64,000 nt of DNA from Patescibacteria group bacterium (GCA_018829965.1 JAHJTG010000016.1:93537-157536), one strand, 5' to 3'; positions 13,402 to 33,831 are shown, numbered from the stretch's first letter. The notes: generated by a model from the sequence alone, not told the origin. Made by a program: numbers and translations.

Positions 13402-14106
13402 TTATATTAATTTTTTTAAAAAAATTAATATTTTTTGATTTATTATTTCCGGTGACAATAACTCACTTTTATCCAAACATTCCACAACTTTAAAATCCTT
13501 TGGAAATTCTTTCGCTGCCGTTAAATAAGAATTAAGAGCGTTTTTTAAATGACTTCTGTCTTTTTCGTGTATATCTTGTTTTTTACTACTTCCCAAATAA
13601 GCTTTTCTTCTGTTTTGTTTATCTTTATCTGTTATGTTGTGTGCTAGCTTTAAAGAAAACTCTGGTGACGTTTTCAAAATAAACGTACAATCCGGCTTTG
13701 GTATTTTAAAAATATTATATTCTAAATTATACAACCAATTTACATATTTCTTCCATTCTTTTTTGCTTTTTATCTTTCCTCCTTGATGCCCAATATTTGA
13801 AACTAAATACCTGTCCGAAATAACAATCTTGCCTTCGTTTAACCATTTTTTAATTTTAAAACTAGCGTCATATCTATCACAAGCATAAAAAATAGAGGGA
13901 ACATAAGCCCCCACTTCTTCTGAGCTCCCGTATTTACCTGTTAAGTAATCATCTACTAATGCCGAGGATCTTTCTCCATGTTGTGGAAAATCAATTTTTT
14001 CTACTTTATATCCTTTATCTTTAAAATACTCAATCGCCAATTTTGCCTGAGTGGCTTTGCCACACCCATCAATTCCCTCGAAAACAATAAATTTTCCTTT
14101 TTTCAT
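13402..14106 (-). CDS. tmk: Thymidylate kinase
   Basis: FIVFEGIDGCGKATQ P-loop, DRY motif (SDRYLVS). Confidence 0.85.
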   Translation of the reverse strand: MKKGKFIVFEGIDGCGKATQAKLAIEYFKDKGYKVEKIDFPQHGERSSALVDDYLTGKYGSSEEVGAYVPSIFYACDRYDASFKIKKWLNEGKIVISDRYLVSNIGHQGGKIKSKKEWKKYVNWLYNLEYNIFKIPKPDCTFILKTSPEFSLKLAHNITDKDKQNRRKAYLGSSKKQDIHEKDRSHLKNALNSYLTAAKEFPKDFKVVECLDKSELLSPEIINQKILIFLKKLI

Positions 14107-27154: not shown

Positions 27155-28625
27155 GTTAAAACGTCATACCTGTCGGCAAAGTTAAAATGTCATACTTGCC
27201 TCAGGTCTTATCGTTCCACTGCCGATAAAATCGGCTGTTTTTTATTGATTAAAAATTGCTTTCGCCAAGGATGATTGGCTGGTGGCGTCCAACTAGCTTG
27301 TTTTCTGCTTGTAAGAGCCGCTAACTTTATATCCATCTCCTTCTTCGGCCTTTCTGGCAAACAGAAGTAATTTAAACAATGATTTCTCAGAGAAATTTTA
27401 ATCTCGCCGCTTAAATGTTCTTCAATCGTTATTTTCTCTTTCTTGTAAACCGTGGTCGGTTGGGTTTCCTCTAATTGGTAATAATTACCTTTAAACCGAA
27501 TCGTGTAATCATTATTAATTTTTCTTTCTGACTGGACTGATAATATTTTGTCCAATTCTTTCATTTTTTCTGCATCTAATATTTGATGCAGATCGCTTTT
27601 CTTTTTTGGCAACACCGCAAACTGTTTGCTGAATTTAGGAATGAATATTTCCTTTAAAAATTTGCTGGCATCGGCGATGGTGTTAATATTGCTAAGTCTT
27701 AATTCTTTCACTAACCGTCTCTGAAGCGTGTTGTTCATTTTTTCCACTCGGCCATTGGCCTGTGGGCTATTGGCGCTGATTACTCTAACGCCTAACTGAT
27801 TCATTGCTCGTTGAAACTGTGTCATTAACTCCTTATTATCAACTGCATTTTTATGATTAACCTTATAGGTGCTGAATTTGTCTAAATAGATTGATATTGG
27901 CAGGCCGTTGGCTACAAAATATTCTTTCCAGAACCTGAATACCGCCCCTACGCTTTCATTGCTCTCAAATATGGCTCCAGTGAGCTTGCCGGTGGCGTCA
28001 TCCACCGATAGAAGCAAACATTGTTCAAGCCCTAACTCTTTTTCATTCCTACCCTCAAACCAATTATGATAAGAGCCGTCAAATTGCTGCATTTCGCCAT
28101 AGTTGTCTTTTCTTTCTCGCCAAAAATGTTTTTTAGTAATACCCTTTTTCCGCGGTTTCCATAACTGCTCGCTAATCATTAATTTCCTGACAGTTTCTTT
28201 ACTCAATTTCACTTTGTTTATTTCAAATAGTTTTTCCTGAGCCAAGAGAGGATTAAAATCGTGATAATCTTTGTGTAAATATTTCTTGGCTTTTGCTAAA
28301 ATTACTGGGCATGTTTTGTTATGACTAACTTTCCCCCTGTTGCCATGAATAATTCCCTTAATACCTAAACATTTAACAACTGCCTTTATTCTTTTGATTT
28401 GCCTCACTGAGCGAGACAGTAATTTAGCAGCTTCTGCGCCATCTATCTTTTTAGATAGCAGTTCCTTAATAATTTCGTAACGATTAACTTCTTTTTGAGT
28501 CATAGTTATTAGCTGATTTTGATTCATAATTTAGTCTAAATTAATTATTAATAATTTAGATAAATTATTACACAAAACTTGTTAACTATGACATTTTAAC
28601 TTTGCCCGTACTATGACATTATCAC
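27155..28625 (-). mobile_element. Insertion sequence (~1.47 kb), ISNCY-like, with ~38-bp imperfect terminal inverted repeats
   Basis: Left end acgtcatacctgtcggcaaagttaaaatgtcatac matches the reverse complement of the right end, atgtcatagtacgggcaaagttaaaatgtcatag. Single transposase ORF. Confidence 0.75.
27208..28527 (-). CDS. DDE transposase (N-terminal HTH plus rve integrase core)
   Basis: MTQKEVNRYEIIKELL...RSVRQIKRIK HTH. DDE candidates QFDGSYH, IYLDKFS, ANGRVEKMN. Confidence 0.85.
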   Translation of the reverse strand: MNQNQLITMTQKEVNRYEIIKELLSKKIDGAEAAKLLSRSVRQIKRIKAVVKCLGIKGIIHGNRGKVSHNKTCPVILAKAKKYLHKDYHDFNPLLAQEKLFEINKVKLSKETVRKLMISEQLWKPRKKGITKKHFWRERKDNYGEMQQFDGSYHNWFEGRNEKELGLEQCLLLSVDDATGKLTGAIFESNESVGAVFRFWKEYFVANGLPISIYLDKFSTYKVNHKNAVDNKELMTQFQRAMNQLGVRVISANSPQANGRVEKMNNTLQRRLVKELRLSNINTIADASKFLKEIFIPKFSKQFAVLPKKKSDLHQILDAEKMKELDKILSVQSERKINNDYTIRFKGNYYQLEETQPTTVYKKEKITIEEHLSGEIKISLRNHCLNYFCLPERPKKEMDIKLAALTSRKQASWTPPANHPWRKQFLINKKQPILSAVER

Positions 28626-28895
28626 TTGGGCGGGACACCTTTCTTCTGCTGTAGCTTTTGATAATTGCCCAGTTCTAATGCAAGTTGGACAGCGTTGGGT
28701 TGCGTGAAAAAGGAATACTTCAACTTTTTCAGGGCTTGTGAATGATTGCATCGTTTGACTTGAGAACGTATTGTTTTGACTGTTTTGATTGTCTTGAACT
28801 ATTCCAGGCAATCTAGGCGAACCCGAACTGGCAATCACTAAAATTAAAATAATTCCCAATCCGATTACAAACCCGACGATGATTTTTTTGTTCAT
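28611..28895 (-). pseudogene. Membrane-anchored thioredoxin-like (CPTC) protein whose 3' end runs into the IS terminus
   Basis: N-terminal TM helix and HATQRCPTC motif. The last codons (VIMS, stop) are encoded by the IS inverted repeat. Confidence 0.5.
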
Positions 28896-28900
28896 AGCTT

Positions 28901-29875
28901 TTATTTCACAAATAAATTAAAAAGATATCCAATGATAATAATATTTATGGCGGTCACGCCAAAAAAATAAACCAGTAGCTTTATTTTCATTACTCGTTTT
29001 AGTATTAAGGCCTCTGGCAAAGATAGACCCACCACAGCCATCATAAAAGCCAAAGCAGTACCGATGGGAATACCTTTTTCAACTAGCGACTGCATAATTG
29101 GAATAACTCCTACGACATTAGCATACATAGGCACGGCAACAATTGTGGCTATTGGCACGGCAAACAAATTTTCAACTGTAATATATTTTTCAAAAAACCC
29201 AGCAGGAATATAGCCATGGATTAAAGCGCCCACAGCTATTCCCAAAAGAACATAAGGTGTAATTTTCTTGGTTAATGAAAAACCCTCTTGCCAAAAAATT
29301 TTAACAAGCTTTCTAAGAGACTCCTTTTTATTTACAGCTTTACTCTTTTTACTTCTAATCTGCCAGACATAATCAGCTACTTGTTTTTCCAGATTTAATT
29401 TACCCAAAATAAATCCGCCGGTTACCCCCAAAATCATAGCTGAAATAACATATAAAATTGTTATTTTCCAACCGAATAGCCCTGCGAATAAAACAACTGC
29501 CACCTGATTAACAAGGGGCGAAGTGATCAAAAAAGATAAGGTTACGCCAAGCGGAATCCCGGCCTCCAAAAATCCTATAAACAAAGGAATTGAGGAACAA
29601 GAACAAAAAGGAGTAATTGTGCCAAAAATAGAAGATAGCAGATAATCTAAACCATACCATTTTCTGGAGGCCAAAAAATCCCGCAGTTTTTCCACTGACA
29701 GATAATATCTAATTATGGCCATAAAATAATTTATGACCAAAAGTAGAAAGATAATTTTTAAAGAGTCATATATAAAAAAATTCAGTGACGTGCCTAAGTG
29801 CGACACTTTTCCAAGATTAAAAATTCCGTAAACTAACCAATCAGATAATAATTGCAAGGGATAAAATATGTCCAT
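28901..29875 (-). CDS. Permease of the YraQ/ArsP (DUF318) type
   Basis: Polytopic protein with the TPFCSCSSIPLF motif characteristic of this family. Confidence 0.8.
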   Translation of the reverse strand: MDIFYPLQLLSDWLVYGIFNLGKVSHLGTSLNFFIYDSLKIIFLLLVINYFMAIIRYYLSVEKLRDFLASRKWYGLDYLLSSIFGTITPFCSCSSIPLFIGFLEAGIPLGVTLSFLITSPLVNQVAVVLFAGLFGWKITILYVISAMILGVTGGFILGKLNLEKQVADYVWQIRSKKSKAVNKKESLRKLVKIFWQEGFSLTKKITPYVLLGIAVGALIHGYIPAGFFEKYITVENLFAVPIATIVAVPMYANVVGVIPIMQSLVEKGIPIGTALAFMMAVVGLSLPEALILKRVMKIKLLVYFFGVTAINIIIIGYLFNLFVK

Positions 29876-29876
29876 A

Positions 29877-30131
29877 TTATTTTATAATTTCTTTTATGGT
29901 TTCTTTTATTTTTTTTATGTCAGGCGATAAGCCAGCTATTACTGGTTTTCCGCCTATTGCCAAAACGGGGCTGGATATTACGCCCATTTCCACAATTTTT
30001 TGAATATCAGTAATATATTCAACCTCTATTCTCAAATTAAGTTCGTTGACGGCCTGTTTGGTTAATTCAAACAATTTTTTACATGTTGAACAACCCGAAC
30101 CAAGAACTTGTATTTTAATTTCTTTATTCAT
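29877..30131 (-). CDS. Thioredoxin-fold redox-active disulfide protein
   Basis: 84 aa. GSGCSTCKKL CxxC motif. Confidence 0.8.
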   Translation of the reverse strand: MNKEIKIQVLGSGCSTCKKLFELTKQAVNELNLRIEVEYITDIQKIVEMGVISSPVLAIGGKPVIAGLSPDIKKIKETIKEIIK

Positions 30132-30135
30132 ATTA

Positions 30136-30438
30136 TTATAAAAATTTATTCAATAATTTTAGATATTTTTTAATGATAATTTTGTTTAATTTATAAAAAA
30201 CTTTCAAACCGTCTTTTCTTGAAGATATTAAACTAAAACCCTTTAGAACTTTTAGGTGGTGCGATGTTAAATTTTGTGGGGAATCTAAGTATTGCCAAAT
30301 CTCACAAACACACATTTCTTGTTCTTTCAGAATACATAAAATCCTCAGACGATTTTCTTCTGAGATAACTTTCAGAAAATCAACTATGCCCTTTAATTCG
30401 CTCCCCACTTTTTTATTTTTGCAACATTTTATCTTCAT
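30136..30438 (-). CDS. ArsR/SmtB-family metalloregulator
   Basis: ENRLRILCILKEQEMCVCEIWQYL winged-HTH with a CVC metal-site motif. Confidence 0.85.
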   Translation of the reverse strand: MKIKCCKNKKVGSELKGIVDFLKVISEENRLRILCILKEQEMCVCEIWQYLDSPQNLTSHHLKVLKGFSLISSRKDGLKVFYKLNKIIIKKYLKLLNKFL

Positions 30439-30542: not shown

Positions 30543-30830
30543 CCCACGACGGGATTTGAATTAAAAATAATCGGGAAAAGTTCTGAAATACTTTTACCCC
30601 TCTAAAATATGCCTGTTTTCAGAACCGTCAAAATAAGTTTAAAACAGGCGATTTTCGTCTACTTATTCCGTCGTGCGCGGGCGACGGGCCTCCTTTGCTA
30701 AAGCTACGGACGGCCAAAGGATTTGAATAACGGGTTCATTCACCCACCACAACAACACATAAAAATAAAATGCCCACGAGGGGCATTTATTTTTATGCGC
30801 CCGCGTGAGGATTTGAACCGGACGGGTCAC
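30543..30830 (-). other. Cluster of three decayed tRNA 3'-end-like fragments (integration scars)
   Basis: 30543-30575, 30669-30750 (tgcgcgggcgacggg...atttgaataacggg, split by a hairpin insertion) and 30796-30830. Compare the tRNA-Asp 3' end tgcgcgggtgacgggatttgaacccg. Confidence 0.55.
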
Positions 30831-30854: not shown

Positions 30855-31445
30855 CTATACAATAATTCCCAATCTTAAAAGTTTTTGGAAATGGTTAGGA
30901 TTATTTATTCTTAAATATTCGACTACTTTACCTCTGACAACAGTGTCAGAATTTATATTATGTCGTTTTGCAAATTCAATAATAGACCTTGTTGCCTCTT
31001 CCATTTCTAATTCTTTATTCGTCATATATTCTATTTCTGTAATAGTATAACCAAAATCCATAAAATCTAAATCGATGTTAAACTTTGACTTTTTATATTT
31101 TCTTCTCGTAGTAGTTATTGCGCAGAAAGGGTTAAATTCATTTTTTACTAAAAAATCGGCGAGTGATCCATCGATATTAGCTTTAAAATAATTTAATATA
31201 TCTTTATCATTTTCTATCTCTTTGTACTGATCTGATACTCTATCTTCAATACACACATTCATTGGAATTTTTAACTCAAACCTATTATCTCTACTACGAA
31301 GCCAAATATCTTTACTTGTTAAAGAATAATTTGAGTCGTCATAATATATATCAGTAAATTTTTTCCCACCTAAAAATTCTGCGCCATCAATAAGAGCTTT
31401 CTCTTGTTCGTTAGTTAAAATAAATTTCTTTTCTACCTCAATCAT
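30855..31445 (-). CDS. CYTH-domain protein (triphosphate tunnel metalloenzyme; CyaB / thiamine-triphosphatase-like)
   Basis: N-terminal ExExK signature (MIEVEKKF). 196 aa. ATGA overlap with the upstream gene. Confidence 0.7.
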   Translation of the reverse strand: MIEVEKKFILTNEQEKALIDGAEFLGGKKFTDIYYDDSNYSLTSKDIWLRSRDNRFELKIPMNVCIEDRVSDQYKEIENDKDILNYFKANIDGSLADFLVKNEFNPFCAITTTRRKYKKSKFNIDLDFMDFGYTITEIEYMTNKELEMEEATRSIIEFAKRHNINSDTVVRGKVVEYLRINNPNHFQKLLRLGIIV

Positions 31446-32212
31446 AAACTTAATTTAGTAATAATAGCTGAATGATCGCTTAATCTCTCTTTCCTTGGAT
31501 TATGTAAATAATAACACTCTTTAATAGACGGCAAAAGGTCTTTTGATACAAAACAGTAGTCATATCTATAACCATCTCCTGTGCGACCAACCCAGCTGTA
31601 ATCTTGTTTTTTGGGATTTAAATGACGAAAAGAATCGAAAAGTCCATAACTTATCAGAGAATTATAAAAACCATACTCCCAATTTTCAAAAAAAGGATAA
31701 TGAGGAGTATGGTTAGGTTCTAAAATATTAAAATCTCCACAAAAAATTCTATTAGAATTATTATTATATAATTGAAATGATTTTCTAAGATTTTCAATAA
31801 ATTGTTTTTTTCTTTGGACTTTATCAAAACTTTTATCTCGCGATGGAATATATGCACCTATAATTTCTACAAACTTATTACTTAAAAATACTTTTACTGA
31901 AACTATCCTAGGCTTAAGATTATCATTTAAATTATAAAAGCCTATCGGCTCTAACTGATGCTTACTTATTACCATTGAACCATATTCTTTTCCATCTGGT
32001 TTTGTAAAAATTACACTATAATTATTTTTTTTAAAATATTCTTCAATAAATGCACACCCTTTACTGTTTTTTGTTTCGGTTAATACAAAAATATCCTCAT
32101 TTCTCTTAGATAACCAATCGACTTGCCTACTCGCCCGTTCAATAGACGGATTTGCTATGTTCCAACAAAATATCGAAAAATTATTTTTTAGATCTTTTTT
32201 CTGCTTAATCAT
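31442..32212 (-). CDS. Exonuclease III-like endonuclease/exonuclease/phosphatase (EEP) family protein
   Basis: CWNIAN, VLTETK, CGDFNI, LSDHSAI motifs. Confidence 0.8.
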   Translation of the reverse strand: MIKQKKDLKNNFSIFCWNIANPSIERASRQVDWLSKRNEDIFVLTETKNSKGCAFIEEYFKKNNYSVIFTKPDGKEYGSMVISKHQLEPIGFYNLNDNLKPRIVSVKVFLSNKFVEIIGAYIPSRDKSFDKVQRKKQFIENLRKSFQLYNNNSNRIFCGDFNILEPNHTPHYPFFENWEYGFYNSLISYGLFDSFRHLNPKKQDYSWVGRTGDGYRYDYCFVSKDLLPSIKECYYLHNPRKERLSDHSAIITKLSL

Positions 32213-32225
32213 TAATACAGTATAA

Positions 32226-32266
32226 CAAAAAAAATCCTTATCGAGAACAAACTCTCAATAAGGATT
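32226..32266 (-). terminator. Rho-independent terminator between the radical-SAM gene and the EEP gene
   Basis: Minus strand reads aatccttat-(16 nt)-ataaggatt followed by T8. Confidence 0.65.
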
Positions 32267-32275
32267 ATAATAAAA

Positions 32276-33370
32276 TTAACCATTTTTATCCTCCGATAAT
32301 AGATCTACTATAGGACAAACTTCTTTGTCCATTCCACCCAACTTATTGCCAGATGCAATAATAGCAGCAGGACAACCCTTTCCGCAAACTGACCTAAGGT
32401 GGCATTTCTGACATTCAGGATTATTCCCTGATTGGCACAACTCTTGAAAATTGTATTTGTCGAGCTTTTTACTAATGTCGGCGTCCTTAAAAATATTTCC
32501 AATGATGAACTCGCTTGATTTATGCTTACTTTGAGGAGTTCTCGCAGCAAATATAAGATACGGGCAAATCGTGACTTCGCCATGCGTAAATACATAAATA
32601 ATATTTCCCGCTTCGCACGAAGAAAGTGGGAGCTTTTGTTCATTTGGAAATCTAACATCTACAACTTCTATCCTATCTCTAAACGGTTGTATAGCTTCTT
32701 TAATTTTTCTCATCATTTCATCTGGAGATCCCAACTCACCAATAGACGCAACCCCTCTTCCCATTCGAGATAGAGGGTTCATAAGCACATAAGATGCATG
32801 ATTCTGGATAGCAAATTCGCATATCTCTGCATATTCGTTTATGTCGGCCAATGTGTTAGGAGTGACTAAAATTCCCCGCAGAAGACGGTTATCTCCCAGT
32901 AACCTAATCCCAGATATTGTTTTTAAAAAGGATTCTTCATTTCCACGAAACTTTCCGTGGCTTTCTGGCTTAAATCCATCTAAACTGACATTAACATGAA
33001 CATCGCCGATATTCGTTAGTGACTCAATTTGCTCCGGTTTTATCACAGAAGCATTTGAGCAAATACCGACTTGAATATTGCTTGCTTTAAATAGCAAAAC
33101 TATATCCAAAATATCTGGATGTAAAAACGGTTCTCCTCCAGTTAAGGTAATACTGACCACTCTGCATTCTCTTAACCGTGGTATTACCATTTTACGAATA
33201 TTATCAATCGACACATAATTACCCTTGGGACCCGCCGAAAGAAAACAATGAGCACAATTCAAATTACATCGTTCTGTAATTTGCAATAATGCCTTACGTT
33301 CTGGTGGCGTAACTGATGACCTAAAATAGCAAGACGATGCCATATTTCTATTAGCAAGTGCTTTCTTCAT
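32276..33370 (-). CDS. Radical SAM enzyme with a C-terminal SPASM/twitch Cys-rich domain
   Basis: CNLNCAHC (CX3CX2C), GGEPF, C-terminal CEAG...CPYL...CQKCHLRSVCGKGCPA. Confidence 0.85.
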   Translation of the reverse strand: MKKALANRNMASSCYFRSSVTPPERKALLQITERCNLNCAHCFLSAGPKGNYVSIDNIRKMVIPRLRECRVVSITLTGGEPFLHPDILDIVLLFKASNIQVGICSNASVIKPEQIESLTNIGDVHVNVSLDGFKPESHGKFRGNEESFLKTISGIRLLGDNRLLRGILVTPNTLADINEYAEICEFAIQNHASYVLMNPLSRMGRGVASIGELGSPDEMMRKIKEAIQPFRDRIEVVDVRFPNEQKLPLSSCEAGNIIYVFTHGEVTICPYLIFAARTPQSKHKSSEFIIGNIFKDADISKKLDKYNFQELCQSGNNPECQKCHLRSVCGKGCPAAIIASGNKLGGMDKEVCPIVDLLSEDKNG

Positions 33371-33617
33371 ATTCCACCTCTCTTTTATTTATTGTTTGAT
33401 TTTCAAAGCCGAAAAACATTTTCGGCGAACTATTATCAGTCTACAACTTTTATGCCAATCCGTCAAATTTTTGGCGAACAAAAAATCCGCCTATTTATCG
33501 GATTTTTTCATTATTTTATCCTATTTTTTCAAATCCCTTCGGGGTCACGGCGACGGGATGTGAACTTTCTCCTATTTTTGTGAGGCCTTCGGGTCTCTCG
33601 ATACTAAAAGCTTCGTG

Positions 33618-33692
33618 CGCGGGTGACGGGATTTGAACCCGTGATCTGATCCGTGACAGGGATCCGAGGACTCCAGACTCCTCCACACCCGC
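33618..33692 (-). tRNA. tRNA-Asp (GUC)
   Basis: Manual cloverleaf: GCGGGTG/CACCCGC acceptor, GATCC-CTGTCAC-GGATC anticodon arm, ACGGG-TTCAAAT-CCCGT T arm, G73. CCA not encoded. Confidence 0.9.
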
Positions 33693-33759
33693 AGGACTAA
33701 ATATAAAAATAATTAAAGTTTTCGTTTTTTGTTTTAAAAATTGGCATTTTTAATTTCTG

Positions 33760-33831
33760 TGCCGACGGCTGGAATCGGACCAGCGACCTTAGCCTTATGA
33801 AGACTCTGCTCTACCACTGAGCTACGCCGGC
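33760..33831 (-). tRNA. tRNA with CAU anticodon (elongator Met or Ile2-lysidine type)
   Basis: GCCGGCG/CGTCGGC acceptor (one G-U pair), GCTC-AGTGGTA-GAGC D arm, loop TTCATAA, unusual T loop TCCGATT. Confidence 0.8.

Follow-up and report, generated by a model that had tools for sequence, protein, structure and literature searches.

Do three genes that lie side by side in the DNA of a patescibacterium, and whose products carry only generic names in the source records, form a functional unit and, if so, what might that unit do? The genes are found in a stretch of 64,000 nucleotides of low-GC DNA (GCA_018829965.1, JAHJTG010000016.1, 93537–157536; hereafter the window), part of a 249,967-bp contig from a member of the Patescibacteria, or Candidate Phyla Radiation (CPR). 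As open reading frames (ORFs) and Pfam matches confirm, they follow one another head to tail, all on the minus strand (Table 1), and encode a SPASM-type radical SAM enzyme (rSAM), an ExoIII-like member of the endonuclease/exonuclease/phosphatase (EEP) family and a triphosphate tunnel enzyme of the CYTH family; the start of the CYTH gene and the stop of the EEP gene share an ATGA, an overlap that is read directly in the sequence. The initial annotation had put the three forward as a candidate accessory system. Here we show that the trio represents a self-contained, horizontally mobile operon in a reduced, CPR-type form that lacks the kinase; the core of this operon consists of the SPASM rSAM and the ExoIII-like enzyme. 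We are highly confident that this cassette is a conserved, mobile functional module; what it makes can be proposed far more tentatively.

Searches with each of the three window proteins returned large, tight families, and many of the matches to the EEP protein and to the rSAM came from contigs of equal length. For the rSAM we scanned one genome per species (185,579 species) with a sequence pattern, which yielded 394 relatives, and fetched the best 80 of these 394 loci; the counts and hosts given for this sample refer to those 80. Neighbours were counted by family-seeded tblastn, a clustering of neighbouring ORFs having been discarded because shadow ORFs in high-GC DNA confounded it. The relatives from species genomes were 50–65% identical to the window protein and came from the CPR, Actinomycetota (Streptomyces, Lentzea, Amycolatopsis, Nocardia and Solirubrobacterales), Bipolaricaulota, Bacteroidota (with Ferruginibacter among the further hosts), Planctomycetota, Bacillota, Symbiobacteriaceae, Melainabacteria and the archaeon Methanoregula. 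The EEP gene was located downstream of the rSAM gene and on the same strand in 73 of the 75 loci with enough sequence. A second sample, approached from the EEP side, consisted of metagenome contigs with enough flanking sequence; here 57 loci extended far enough upstream of the EEP gene, and 51 of them had the rSAM gene there; a CYTH gene was present downstream in 18 of 55. With an identical order of genes in well over 100 independent loci, the adjacency of the trio is far beyond what chance would give. Synteny in other genomes had been set beforehand as a check on the proposed system, and the trio was indeed found intact in several of the compared loci (designated by L numbers), namely L120, L121, L125, L127 and L129, and together with a kinase gene in L007, L009, L010 and others. 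Comparison of the flanks of the loci revealed no conserved genes outside the cassette.

The usual operon is larger than the trio. In the rSAM-side sample a gene of the thymidylate kinase family (Tmk-like) adjoins in 70 of 73 loci, and a further gene occupies a fourth slot in 67 of 73. The occupant is a NUDIX gene in 27 loci, a CYTH gene in 16, both in 3, a MazG-like gene in 14, a deoxynucleoside kinase (dNK) gene in 2 and a membrane protein gene specific to the Solirubrobacterales in 5, the slot being empty in the remaining 6. The trio therefore holds as a unit by its conserved synteny, but as a reduced form of an operon that ordinarily includes a kinase. The common order is rSAM-Tmk-EEP-X, whereas in the CPR it is Tmk-rSAM-EEP-CYTH, with an extra NUDIX gene in L007. 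On a plasmid of Streptomyces sp. NBC_00690 (NZ_CP109010) the four genes, annotated by NCBI as radical SAM protein, tmk, EEP family and MazG-like, follow one another with overlapping stop and start codons.

Some loci carry additional features. The membrane protein that fills the fourth slot in Solirubrobacterales is lineage-specific, is about 270 residues long, bears the motif FYxAGHSxGxWC and has no Pfam match; in five loci of this order (L027, L028, L036, L047 and L075) a second, divergently oriented EEP gene lies upstream of the rSAM gene. In four metagenome loci (L144, L145, L147 and L172) the rSAM gene appears as two separate tblastn segments, which may be frameshifts, pseudogenes or tandem copies. 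A ThyX gene (1.4e-50; L146, 5946–6611) and a Dam-type DNA methyltransferase gene (L157, 2840–3667) directly follow the cassette at a single locus each, and a helical domain of 5-hydroxymethyldeoxyuridine (5-hmdU) DNA kinase (7.5e-101) was observed once, in one of 150 flanking ORFs. These neighbours hint at thymidine metabolism or modification.

How firmly does the CYTH gene belong? The window protein begins with MIEVEKK, which supplies the ExExK motif, and matches PF01928 over residues 1–169; its best solved relatives are mammalian thiamine triphosphatases (3e-13), and with 23.8 bits it falls short of the CyaB equivalog cut-off of 57.95. It is 61–65% identical to CPR CYTH proteins whose genes stand alone in unrelated contexts, as most CPR genes of its type do, and this, taken alone, suggests a housekeeping gene. 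A closely related locus (L120) bears on the point. Its CYTH gene lies behind an EEP gene whose product is 82% identical to that of the window, but the CYTH protein is unrelated in sequence to the window CYTH (BLASTP E = 0.4) and belongs instead with the CyaB-like proteins of actinomycete cassettes (E = 2e-13), one of which just passes the CyaB cut-off (58.5 versus 57.95). A CyaB-like CYTH is also present in L121, and in both loci its gene shares 4 bp with the end of the EEP gene, as in the window. Two unrelated CYTH subfamilies thus occupy the same overlapping slot, which argues that a triphosphatase was selected there. The filling of the slot by two CYTH lineages, by NUDIX proteins (closest to MutT) and by MazG proteins, three unrelated NTP-pyrophosphatase folds in all, is, as judged from sequence, a case of non-orthologous displacement, and this displacement is the strongest sign that the cassette requires a nucleoside triphosphate (NTP) hydrolase activity. 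The CYTH gene retains its place as the occupant of the overlapping slot, but it is one of several interchangeable fillers and not a fixed component.

The form of the cassette in the window is best understood from its closest relatives, L120, L121 and L122, in which the rSAM is 80–84% and the EEP protein 75–84% identical to those of the window. They likewise have no kinase gene, and they lie in three different contexts: in L120 a tRNA-Gln gene is followed by rSAM-EEP-CYTH, in L121 the same series is followed by Bro-N and PIF1 genes, and in L122 a tRNA-Arg gene is followed by rSAM-EEP and nothing more. Since L122 holds these two genes alone, rSAM and EEP constitute the minimal core. In the window tRNA genes occupy the position of the kinase, and the sole Tmk is a canonical one encoded about 17 kb away. 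The initial annotation had described the trio as lying in a tRNA-anchored islet, and this description has been strengthened. A same-strand tRNA gene of differing identity ends 174–292 bp before the rSAM gene in the window, in L120, L121 and L122 (236–292 bp from the cassette in these three) and in L003 (174 bp, tRNA-Ser). Moreover, the window carries four fragments resembling the T-arm and acceptor 3' end of tRNA-Asp, three of them just past the CYTH stop and a fourth right after the true tRNA gene. The sequence TTCAAATCC occurs five times in the 64 kb, where about 1.7 copies per window are expected, and four of the copies are on the minus strand (one in tRNA-Asp itself and three within 270 bp past CYTH). 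Because neither ARAGORN nor Rfam called a tRNA past CYTH, we rejected tRNA pseudogenes at that position and regard the fragments as short 3'-end-like pieces only; they may be att-type scars left by repeated integration, with the three past CYTH marking the distal boundary of the islet. The tRNA-Arg gene of L122, too, is followed by an additional fragment that resembles a T-arm.

Beyond the cassette, by 2.3 kb, lies a transposase gene, and the GC content over the EEP/CYTH segment falls to 0.277; no integrase gene is present at the locus. From the tRNA anchors, the tRNA-like fragments, the transposase and the drop in GC content we read the locus as an old tRNA-targeted islet. A search of 50,697 phage records for the rSAM family returned nothing beyond two distant rSAM proteins. 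A phage origin was considered and rejected, IMG/VR having given just four provirus-type matches and PHROGs generic ones. Among the other neighbours, an HTH_23 protein gene that abuts tRNA-Met is also found beside the cassette in L001 and L002, which are from the same genome, and farther upstream a LepA-like GTPase carries a low-complexity insert, ILNPKSEILNKPKTQNPKSETNSLEFSASNLEF, within its GTPase domain.

Table 1. The cassette and its surroundings in the 64,000-nucleotide window
Feature	Position	Strand	Evidence	Remark
Canonical Tmk	13402–14106			sole Tmk of the window
Transposase, 439 aa	27208–28527	minus	phrog_8463, 6e-35
ArsR / thioredoxin-like / ArsP-type permease cluster	28611–30438			between transposase and cassette
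Three tRNA-Asp 3'-end-like fragments	30545–30819	minus		repeat families D1, D2 and D6
Terminator-like hairpin	30768–30788	minus		past CYTH; 8-bp stem, 4 GC pairs, T-run
CYTH (triphosphate tunnel) enzyme, 196 aa	30855–31445	minus	Pfam CYTH PF01928, 1.3e-16	thiamine-triphosphatase-like type; variable NTP-pyrophosphatase slot
ExoIII/APE1-like EEP enzyme, 256 aa	31442–32212	minus	Pfam Exo_endo_phos, 2.8e-10	constant core gene 2
TATACT-N6-ATG of EEP	32213–32232	minus		no Shine-Dalgarno sequence
Hairpin (15 bp) and U8 tract	32233–32266	minus	scan, folding	internal terminator or attenuator between rSAM and EEP
SPASM-type rSAM, 364 aa	32276–33370	minus	Pfam Radical_SAM, 7.9e-22	constant core gene 1
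Promoter-like TTGACG-N17-TAGACT (extended TG) and 17-nt leader hairpin CCGAAAA-TGT-TTTTCGG	33409–33466	minus	scan
Fourth tRNA-Asp 3'-end copy	33549–33565	minus
tRNA-Asp(GTC)	33617–33692	minus	ARAGORN, Rfam	upstream anchor of the islet; 3' end towards cassette
tRNA-Met	33759–33831			close upstream of rSAM, beyond tRNA-Asp
HTH_23 protein, 230 aa	33836–34528	minus
LepA-like GTPase, 642 aa	35391–37319	minus

A terminator between the rSAM and EEP genes had been raised as a caveat to treating the three genes as a unit. The terminator is real: the hairpin has a folding energy of -17.8 kcal/mol (z = -5.3) in the window, and it is kept together with its U8 tract in L120, L121 and L122, two positions of the stem showing compensatory changes (z = -4.4 to -5.8 across the clade). 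The stretch that follows it is also conserved in these three relatives, and the succession of a conserved terminator and a TATACT-N6-ATG that is devoid of a Shine-Dalgarno sequence suggests that EEP and CYTH may be expressed from a separate, possibly leaderless, transcript. Synteny is not broken by the hairpin, which bears on differential expression and not on functional independence. Meanwhile, upstream of the rSAM gene, the promoter, the leader hairpin (with A/G wobble changes) and a TTTGAcAAT box are kept in the window, in L122 and in L003, that is, in genomes whose rSAM proteins are only 65% identical. An Rfam search of the window region and of 17 related loci gave just tRNAs and no family for the leader, and a riboswitch was dismissed, the weak match to tsr26 (38 bits versus 141) being attributed to chance.

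We turn to the proteins themselves. The rSAM is of the SPASM type, as first proposed: the CxxxCxxC motif is formed by C35, C39 and C42, and of seven C-terminal cysteines six (C252, C269, C320, C323, C329 and C333) are invariant among 83 sequences and the seventh, C352, is nearly so. An additional cysteine, C14 (in the motif ASCYFRS), is likewise invariant, as or nearly as are several basic residues; family members are 56–84% identical. In an AlphaFold2 model (pLDDT 90.6) the nearest folds in the PDB were those of SkfB, SuiB, BlsE, PqqE and CteB (TM scores of 0.6–0.68, at most 22% identity), with viperins ranking lower. These SPASM/twitch enzymes, together with MftC, are the best sequence and fold matches, and they share with the cassette rSAM a core followed by a cysteine-rich domain for auxiliary clusters. 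They differ in that the cassette rSAM has neither a peptide-recognition domain nor a precursor gene and has nucleotide enzymes as partners. Indeed, no RiPP recognition element (RRE) was found, the rSAM core beginning at about residue 25, whereas the alignments with SkfB, CteB and SuiB begin at their residues 93–136; and, as the initial annotation had noted, there is no precursor-peptide ORF upstream of the rSAM gene, the coding strand having just spurious ORFs of 22–38 codons. None of the NCBIfam equivalog cut-offs (StsB, MftC, AlbA, SkfB, PapB and others) was reached, the best scores being 92 bits against 625 and 90 against 265. It is thus very improbable that the rSAM is a maturase of proteins or of ribosomally synthesized and post-translationally modified peptides (RiPPs) that merely lies beside unrelated nucleotide-metabolism genes, for although its closest relatives in sequence and fold (SkfB, SuiB, CteB, PqqE and MftC) are peptide-modifying SPASM enzymes, it has no RRE domain, precursor ORF, protease gene or transporter gene, it misses every equivalog cut-off by a wide margin, and its sole conserved neighbours in more than 100 loci and at least eight phyla are nucleotide enzymes.

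The EEP protein has a predicted fold close to those of ExoIII (1ako), NExo, APE1 and Mth212 (TM scores of about 0.8 to 1ako, 2voa and 6fk4), and it shares the full catalytic set of the Xth/APE1 family, all residues of which are invariant (N18, E46, Y121, D160, N162, D218, D246 and H247). In contrast to Xth, NExo and Mth212, it lies just below the xth cut-off, is bound in an operon to the rSAM and can be plasmid-borne: it scored 92.0 bits against the TIGR00633 cut-off of 99.05 and 90.5 against the TIGR00195 cut-off of 182.55, and a Streptomyces member scored 64 against the xth profile. Compared with its relatives it has a shorter loop ahead of the YRYD motif, a loop that is aligned with TYMMNARSKNVGW of APE1. 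Distant EEP paralogues, 33–39% identical, were observed on two Streptomyces plasmids in clusters that look biosynthetic (L203, NZ_CP107864, 141431–152183; L204, NZ_CP108678, 146671–157453). One of these clusters contains genes for PqqD, a 598-residue radical SAM protein, an aldo/keto reductase, an aminotransferase, a formyltransferase and a second EEP protein; the other adjoins an FxLD lanthipeptide cluster with NUDIX and phosphotransferase genes.

Could the EEP and CYTH genes nonetheless be ordinary housekeeping genes, the only Xth of the genome and a CPR triphosphatase, that came by chance to lie next to the rSAM gene in this lineage? The nearness of the EEP score to the xth cut-off (92 versus 99.05), the lack of a second EEP gene within the 64-kb window and the similarity of the CYTH protein to stand-alone homologues would be in keeping with such an explanation. 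We consider it very unlikely, however: the EEP subfamily travels with the rSAM, as the metagenome loci attest, it is found on the Streptomyces plasmid beside a second tmk-like gene, and it carries family-specific invariant motifs (LEPNHxPHYPFFExWEYxFY). These observations, and the failure of the rSAM to reach any equivalog cut-off, bear out the original view of the locus as a conserved accessory cassette of nucleotide enzymes and not as a housekeeping maturase next to a canonical Xth.

The kinase that accompanies the cassette in the relatives provides a further hint. Three cassette kinases exceeded the cut-off of 83.25 bits for the dTMP kinase family TIGR00041 (L029, 110 bits; L039, 122; L011, 99), and the truncated copy in L007 scored 69.9. 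The P-loop, however, is altered: in 103 of 104 cassette kinases it reads G-P-[N/G]-G-x-G-K, and the position that is aspartate in thymidylate kinases (TMPKs) is asparagine in 57, glycine in 46 and aspartate in 1. An acidic P-loop aspartate (GxDxxGKS/T) is unique to TMPKs among nucleoside monophosphate (NMP) kinases (PMC3169407). The 103 kinases are therefore without the TMPK-specific aspartate, whereas the window's own Tmk keeps it (FEGIDGCGKAT). In the yeast, human and M. tuberculosis structures this aspartate contacts the 3'-OH of dTMP and is displaced by azidothymidine monophosphate (AZT-MP). The altered P-loop would fit a 3'-modified or other non-dTMP substrate.

What, then, might the operon do? 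By family, the conserved partners of the rSAM all act on deoxynucleotides or on DNA 3' ends. We tentatively favor, with considerable reserve, the possibility that the operon serves to produce and process a modified pyrimidine (deoxy)nucleotide according to the logic of a viperin and its kinase. The linkage of viperins to kinases is documented, and an association or fusion with a triphosphatase or cyclase domain is occasional. As with viperin (RSAD2 or pVip) and its kinase (CMPK2 or VakA), the genes for an rSAM enzyme and for an NMP kinase are linked; the distribution is sporadic and horizontally spread in both cases; and the cassette kinases weakly match VakA, as the rSAM core does pVip. The differences are equally plain. 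Viperins, which produce ddh-nucleotides and protect against phage, are of the single-cluster CxxxCxxC type, whereas the cassette rSAM has in addition a SPASM domain for which two auxiliary clusters are predicted; the cassette further includes an ExoIII-like enzyme and a slot for an NTP pyrophosphatase; and viperins use CTP, UTP or GTP, whereas the kinase family and the dNK partners hint at a deoxy-pyrimidine. The enzyme nearest in substrate class is BlsE, whose substrate is a nucleoside, but it aligns over residues 24–179 only. A parallel of a different kind is the oxetanocin pathway, in which the rSAM OxsB acts on a phosphorylated deoxynucleotide and the phosphohydrolase OxsA strips the phosphates to free a nucleoside analogue; OxsB is B12-dependent and OxsA is an HD-domain protein, and there is no homology with the cassette beyond the rSAM core.

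In a pathway of this sort the kinase or kinases would bring a thymidine-like nucleotide to the phosphorylation state that the rSAM needs, or would activate the rSAM product, and the rSAM would alter the sugar or the base of the phosphorylated nucleotide. The steps could form a linear scheme in which kinases, rSAM, pyrophosphatase and EEP, the last as a phosphatase, act in turn, the end product being a modified nucleoside. Alternatively, the producer could be protected by its own cassette, with the triphosphatase cleaning the nucleotide pool and the ExoIII-like enzyme trimming blocked 3' DNA ends. This immunity scheme is suggested by two precedents: the linkage of viperins to kinases and their occasional fusion to triphosphatase domains, and the finding that E. 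coli ExoIII excises chain-terminating AZT-MP from 3' ends and that xthA mutants are AZT-sensitive (PMC4636137). Phage polymerases or rival cells might be the target of the product. As the window has no cassette kinase, its canonical Tmk would have to serve. A narrower version of the proposal, in which the SPASM rSAM makes a 3'-altered DNA chain terminator from a thymidine-type deoxynucleotide, the kinases, with a P-loop deprived of the aspartate that contacts the 3'-OH, activate it, and the ExoIII-like enzyme and the triphosphatase confer immunity, strikes us as an improbable though not idle conjecture. If true, it would amount to a new class of rSAM nucleotide chemistry and to an analogue of viperin directed at DNA, which horizontal transfer has carried through the bacteria and to an archaeon.

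Several observations weigh against a modified nucleotide as the product. A kinase and a pyrophosphatase encoded in a single operon would work against each other, which makes any order of the steps conjectural. The EEP protein, with its complete set of ExoIII catalytic residues and its ExoIII fold, would suit ordinary DNA repair as well as self-immunity. Nor is the rSAM a viperin: the pVip models of PADLOC match residues 29–141 alone, corresponding to profile positions 4–111 of 257, and the same is true of the Streptomyces homologue, so that only the N-terminal core is covered. The clade of the window lacks the kinase altogether, and its family of CYTH proteins is mostly stand-alone in CPR genomes. 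Finally, signs of a defence role are scant. EEP, CYTH and MazG have no match in PADLOC-DB v2, and no recurrent defence family emerged among 150 flanking ORFs from 24 diverse loci (examined without a baseline), in which PDC-S02, CARF and ShosA were each matched once. The anti-phage role that the initial annotation had suggested gained no support from these searches.

Is there a better account of the same genes? The most serious competitor, which we judge doubtful, is a module for the sanitation of DNA precursors or for repair, in which the rSAM would reverse or remove a specific lesion or modification of pyrimidines, be they part of DNA or of free nucleotides, and no toxic product would be made. 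The ExoIII-like enzyme would incise or trim the damaged DNA, the NUDIX, MazG or CYTH protein would hydrolyse an aberrant (d)NTP, and the Tmk-like kinase or dNK would re-phosphorylate the salvaged nucleotide. All of the partners come from classical families of repair or pool cleaning (an intact ExoIII, a MutT-like NUDIX, a MazG-like protein, Tmk and dNK, with ThyX in L146), direct recognition of altered pyrimidines occurs among ExoIII homologues such as Mth212, and no defence-island signal was seen. What sets us against it is, first, the sporadic distribution, with only those 394 relatives among all the species genomes scanned; second, the variable flanks, the plasmid-borne copy and the CPR copies at tRNA genes, which are the marks of an accessory mobile trait rather than of core repair; and third, the systematic loss of the TMPK aspartate, which argues for a substrate other than dTMP. 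In addition, we know of no SPASM-type rSAM that is a DNA repair enzyme.

A very unlikely explanation is the one closest to the original suggestion of a nuclease effector activated by a nucleotide signal, namely an anti-phage system in which the rSAM or the CYTH protein would make a nucleotide second messenger and the EEP nuclease would be the killing effector. CYTH enzymes do include class IV adenylate cyclases (and the actinomycete CYTH, as noted above, just passes the CyaB cut-off), and the EEP protein does have a nuclease fold. The latter is, however, a bare ExoIII fold, a single domain of 256 residues with no sensor domain, and no PADLOC match was obtained. Moreover, since the CYTH protein can be replaced by a NUDIX, a MazG or a kinase, or can be absent, the product of a cyclase cannot be essential.

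The cassette, then, is neither a viperin, a known SPASM maturase, a canonical Xth nor a PADLOC system. PADLOC was run on the window proteins and on homologues from Streptomyces, Ferruginibacter and the CPR, and a known defence system was rejected, the matches being weak and partial only (the kinase to PDC-M51B and VakA, a NUDIX protein to PDC-S07 and the rSAM core to pVip). A curated family name was sought in NCBIfam, which gave nothing above cut-off for the rSAM, the EEP protein or the window CYTH, and full-text searches of the literature found no description of the operon.

If the proposal of a modified pyrimidine nucleotide is correct, the cassette would represent a second, independent solution of the viperin kind, in which an rSAM and a nucleotide kinase make a polymerase poison on another scaffold and with self-protection genes of their own. 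It would also represent a new natural chemistry of nucleoside analogues, aimed at deoxy-pyrimidines and offering possible antiviral or antibiotic leads, and it would add a new enzyme class to the biology of SPASM rSAM enzymes, which has so far been dominated by peptide substrates. Genes that NCBI, at least on the Streptomyces plasmid, annotates generically as "radical SAM protein", "dTMP kinase" and "endonuclease/exonuclease/phosphatase family protein", and whose CPR members likewise bear generic names alone, would thereby acquire a function. If, instead, the cassette serves repair, it would reveal an unrecognised radical-based route for dealing with damaged or modified thymidine nucleotides. 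Because the cassette is small, with three to four genes, and is present in cultivable Streptomyces, these ideas are directly testable.

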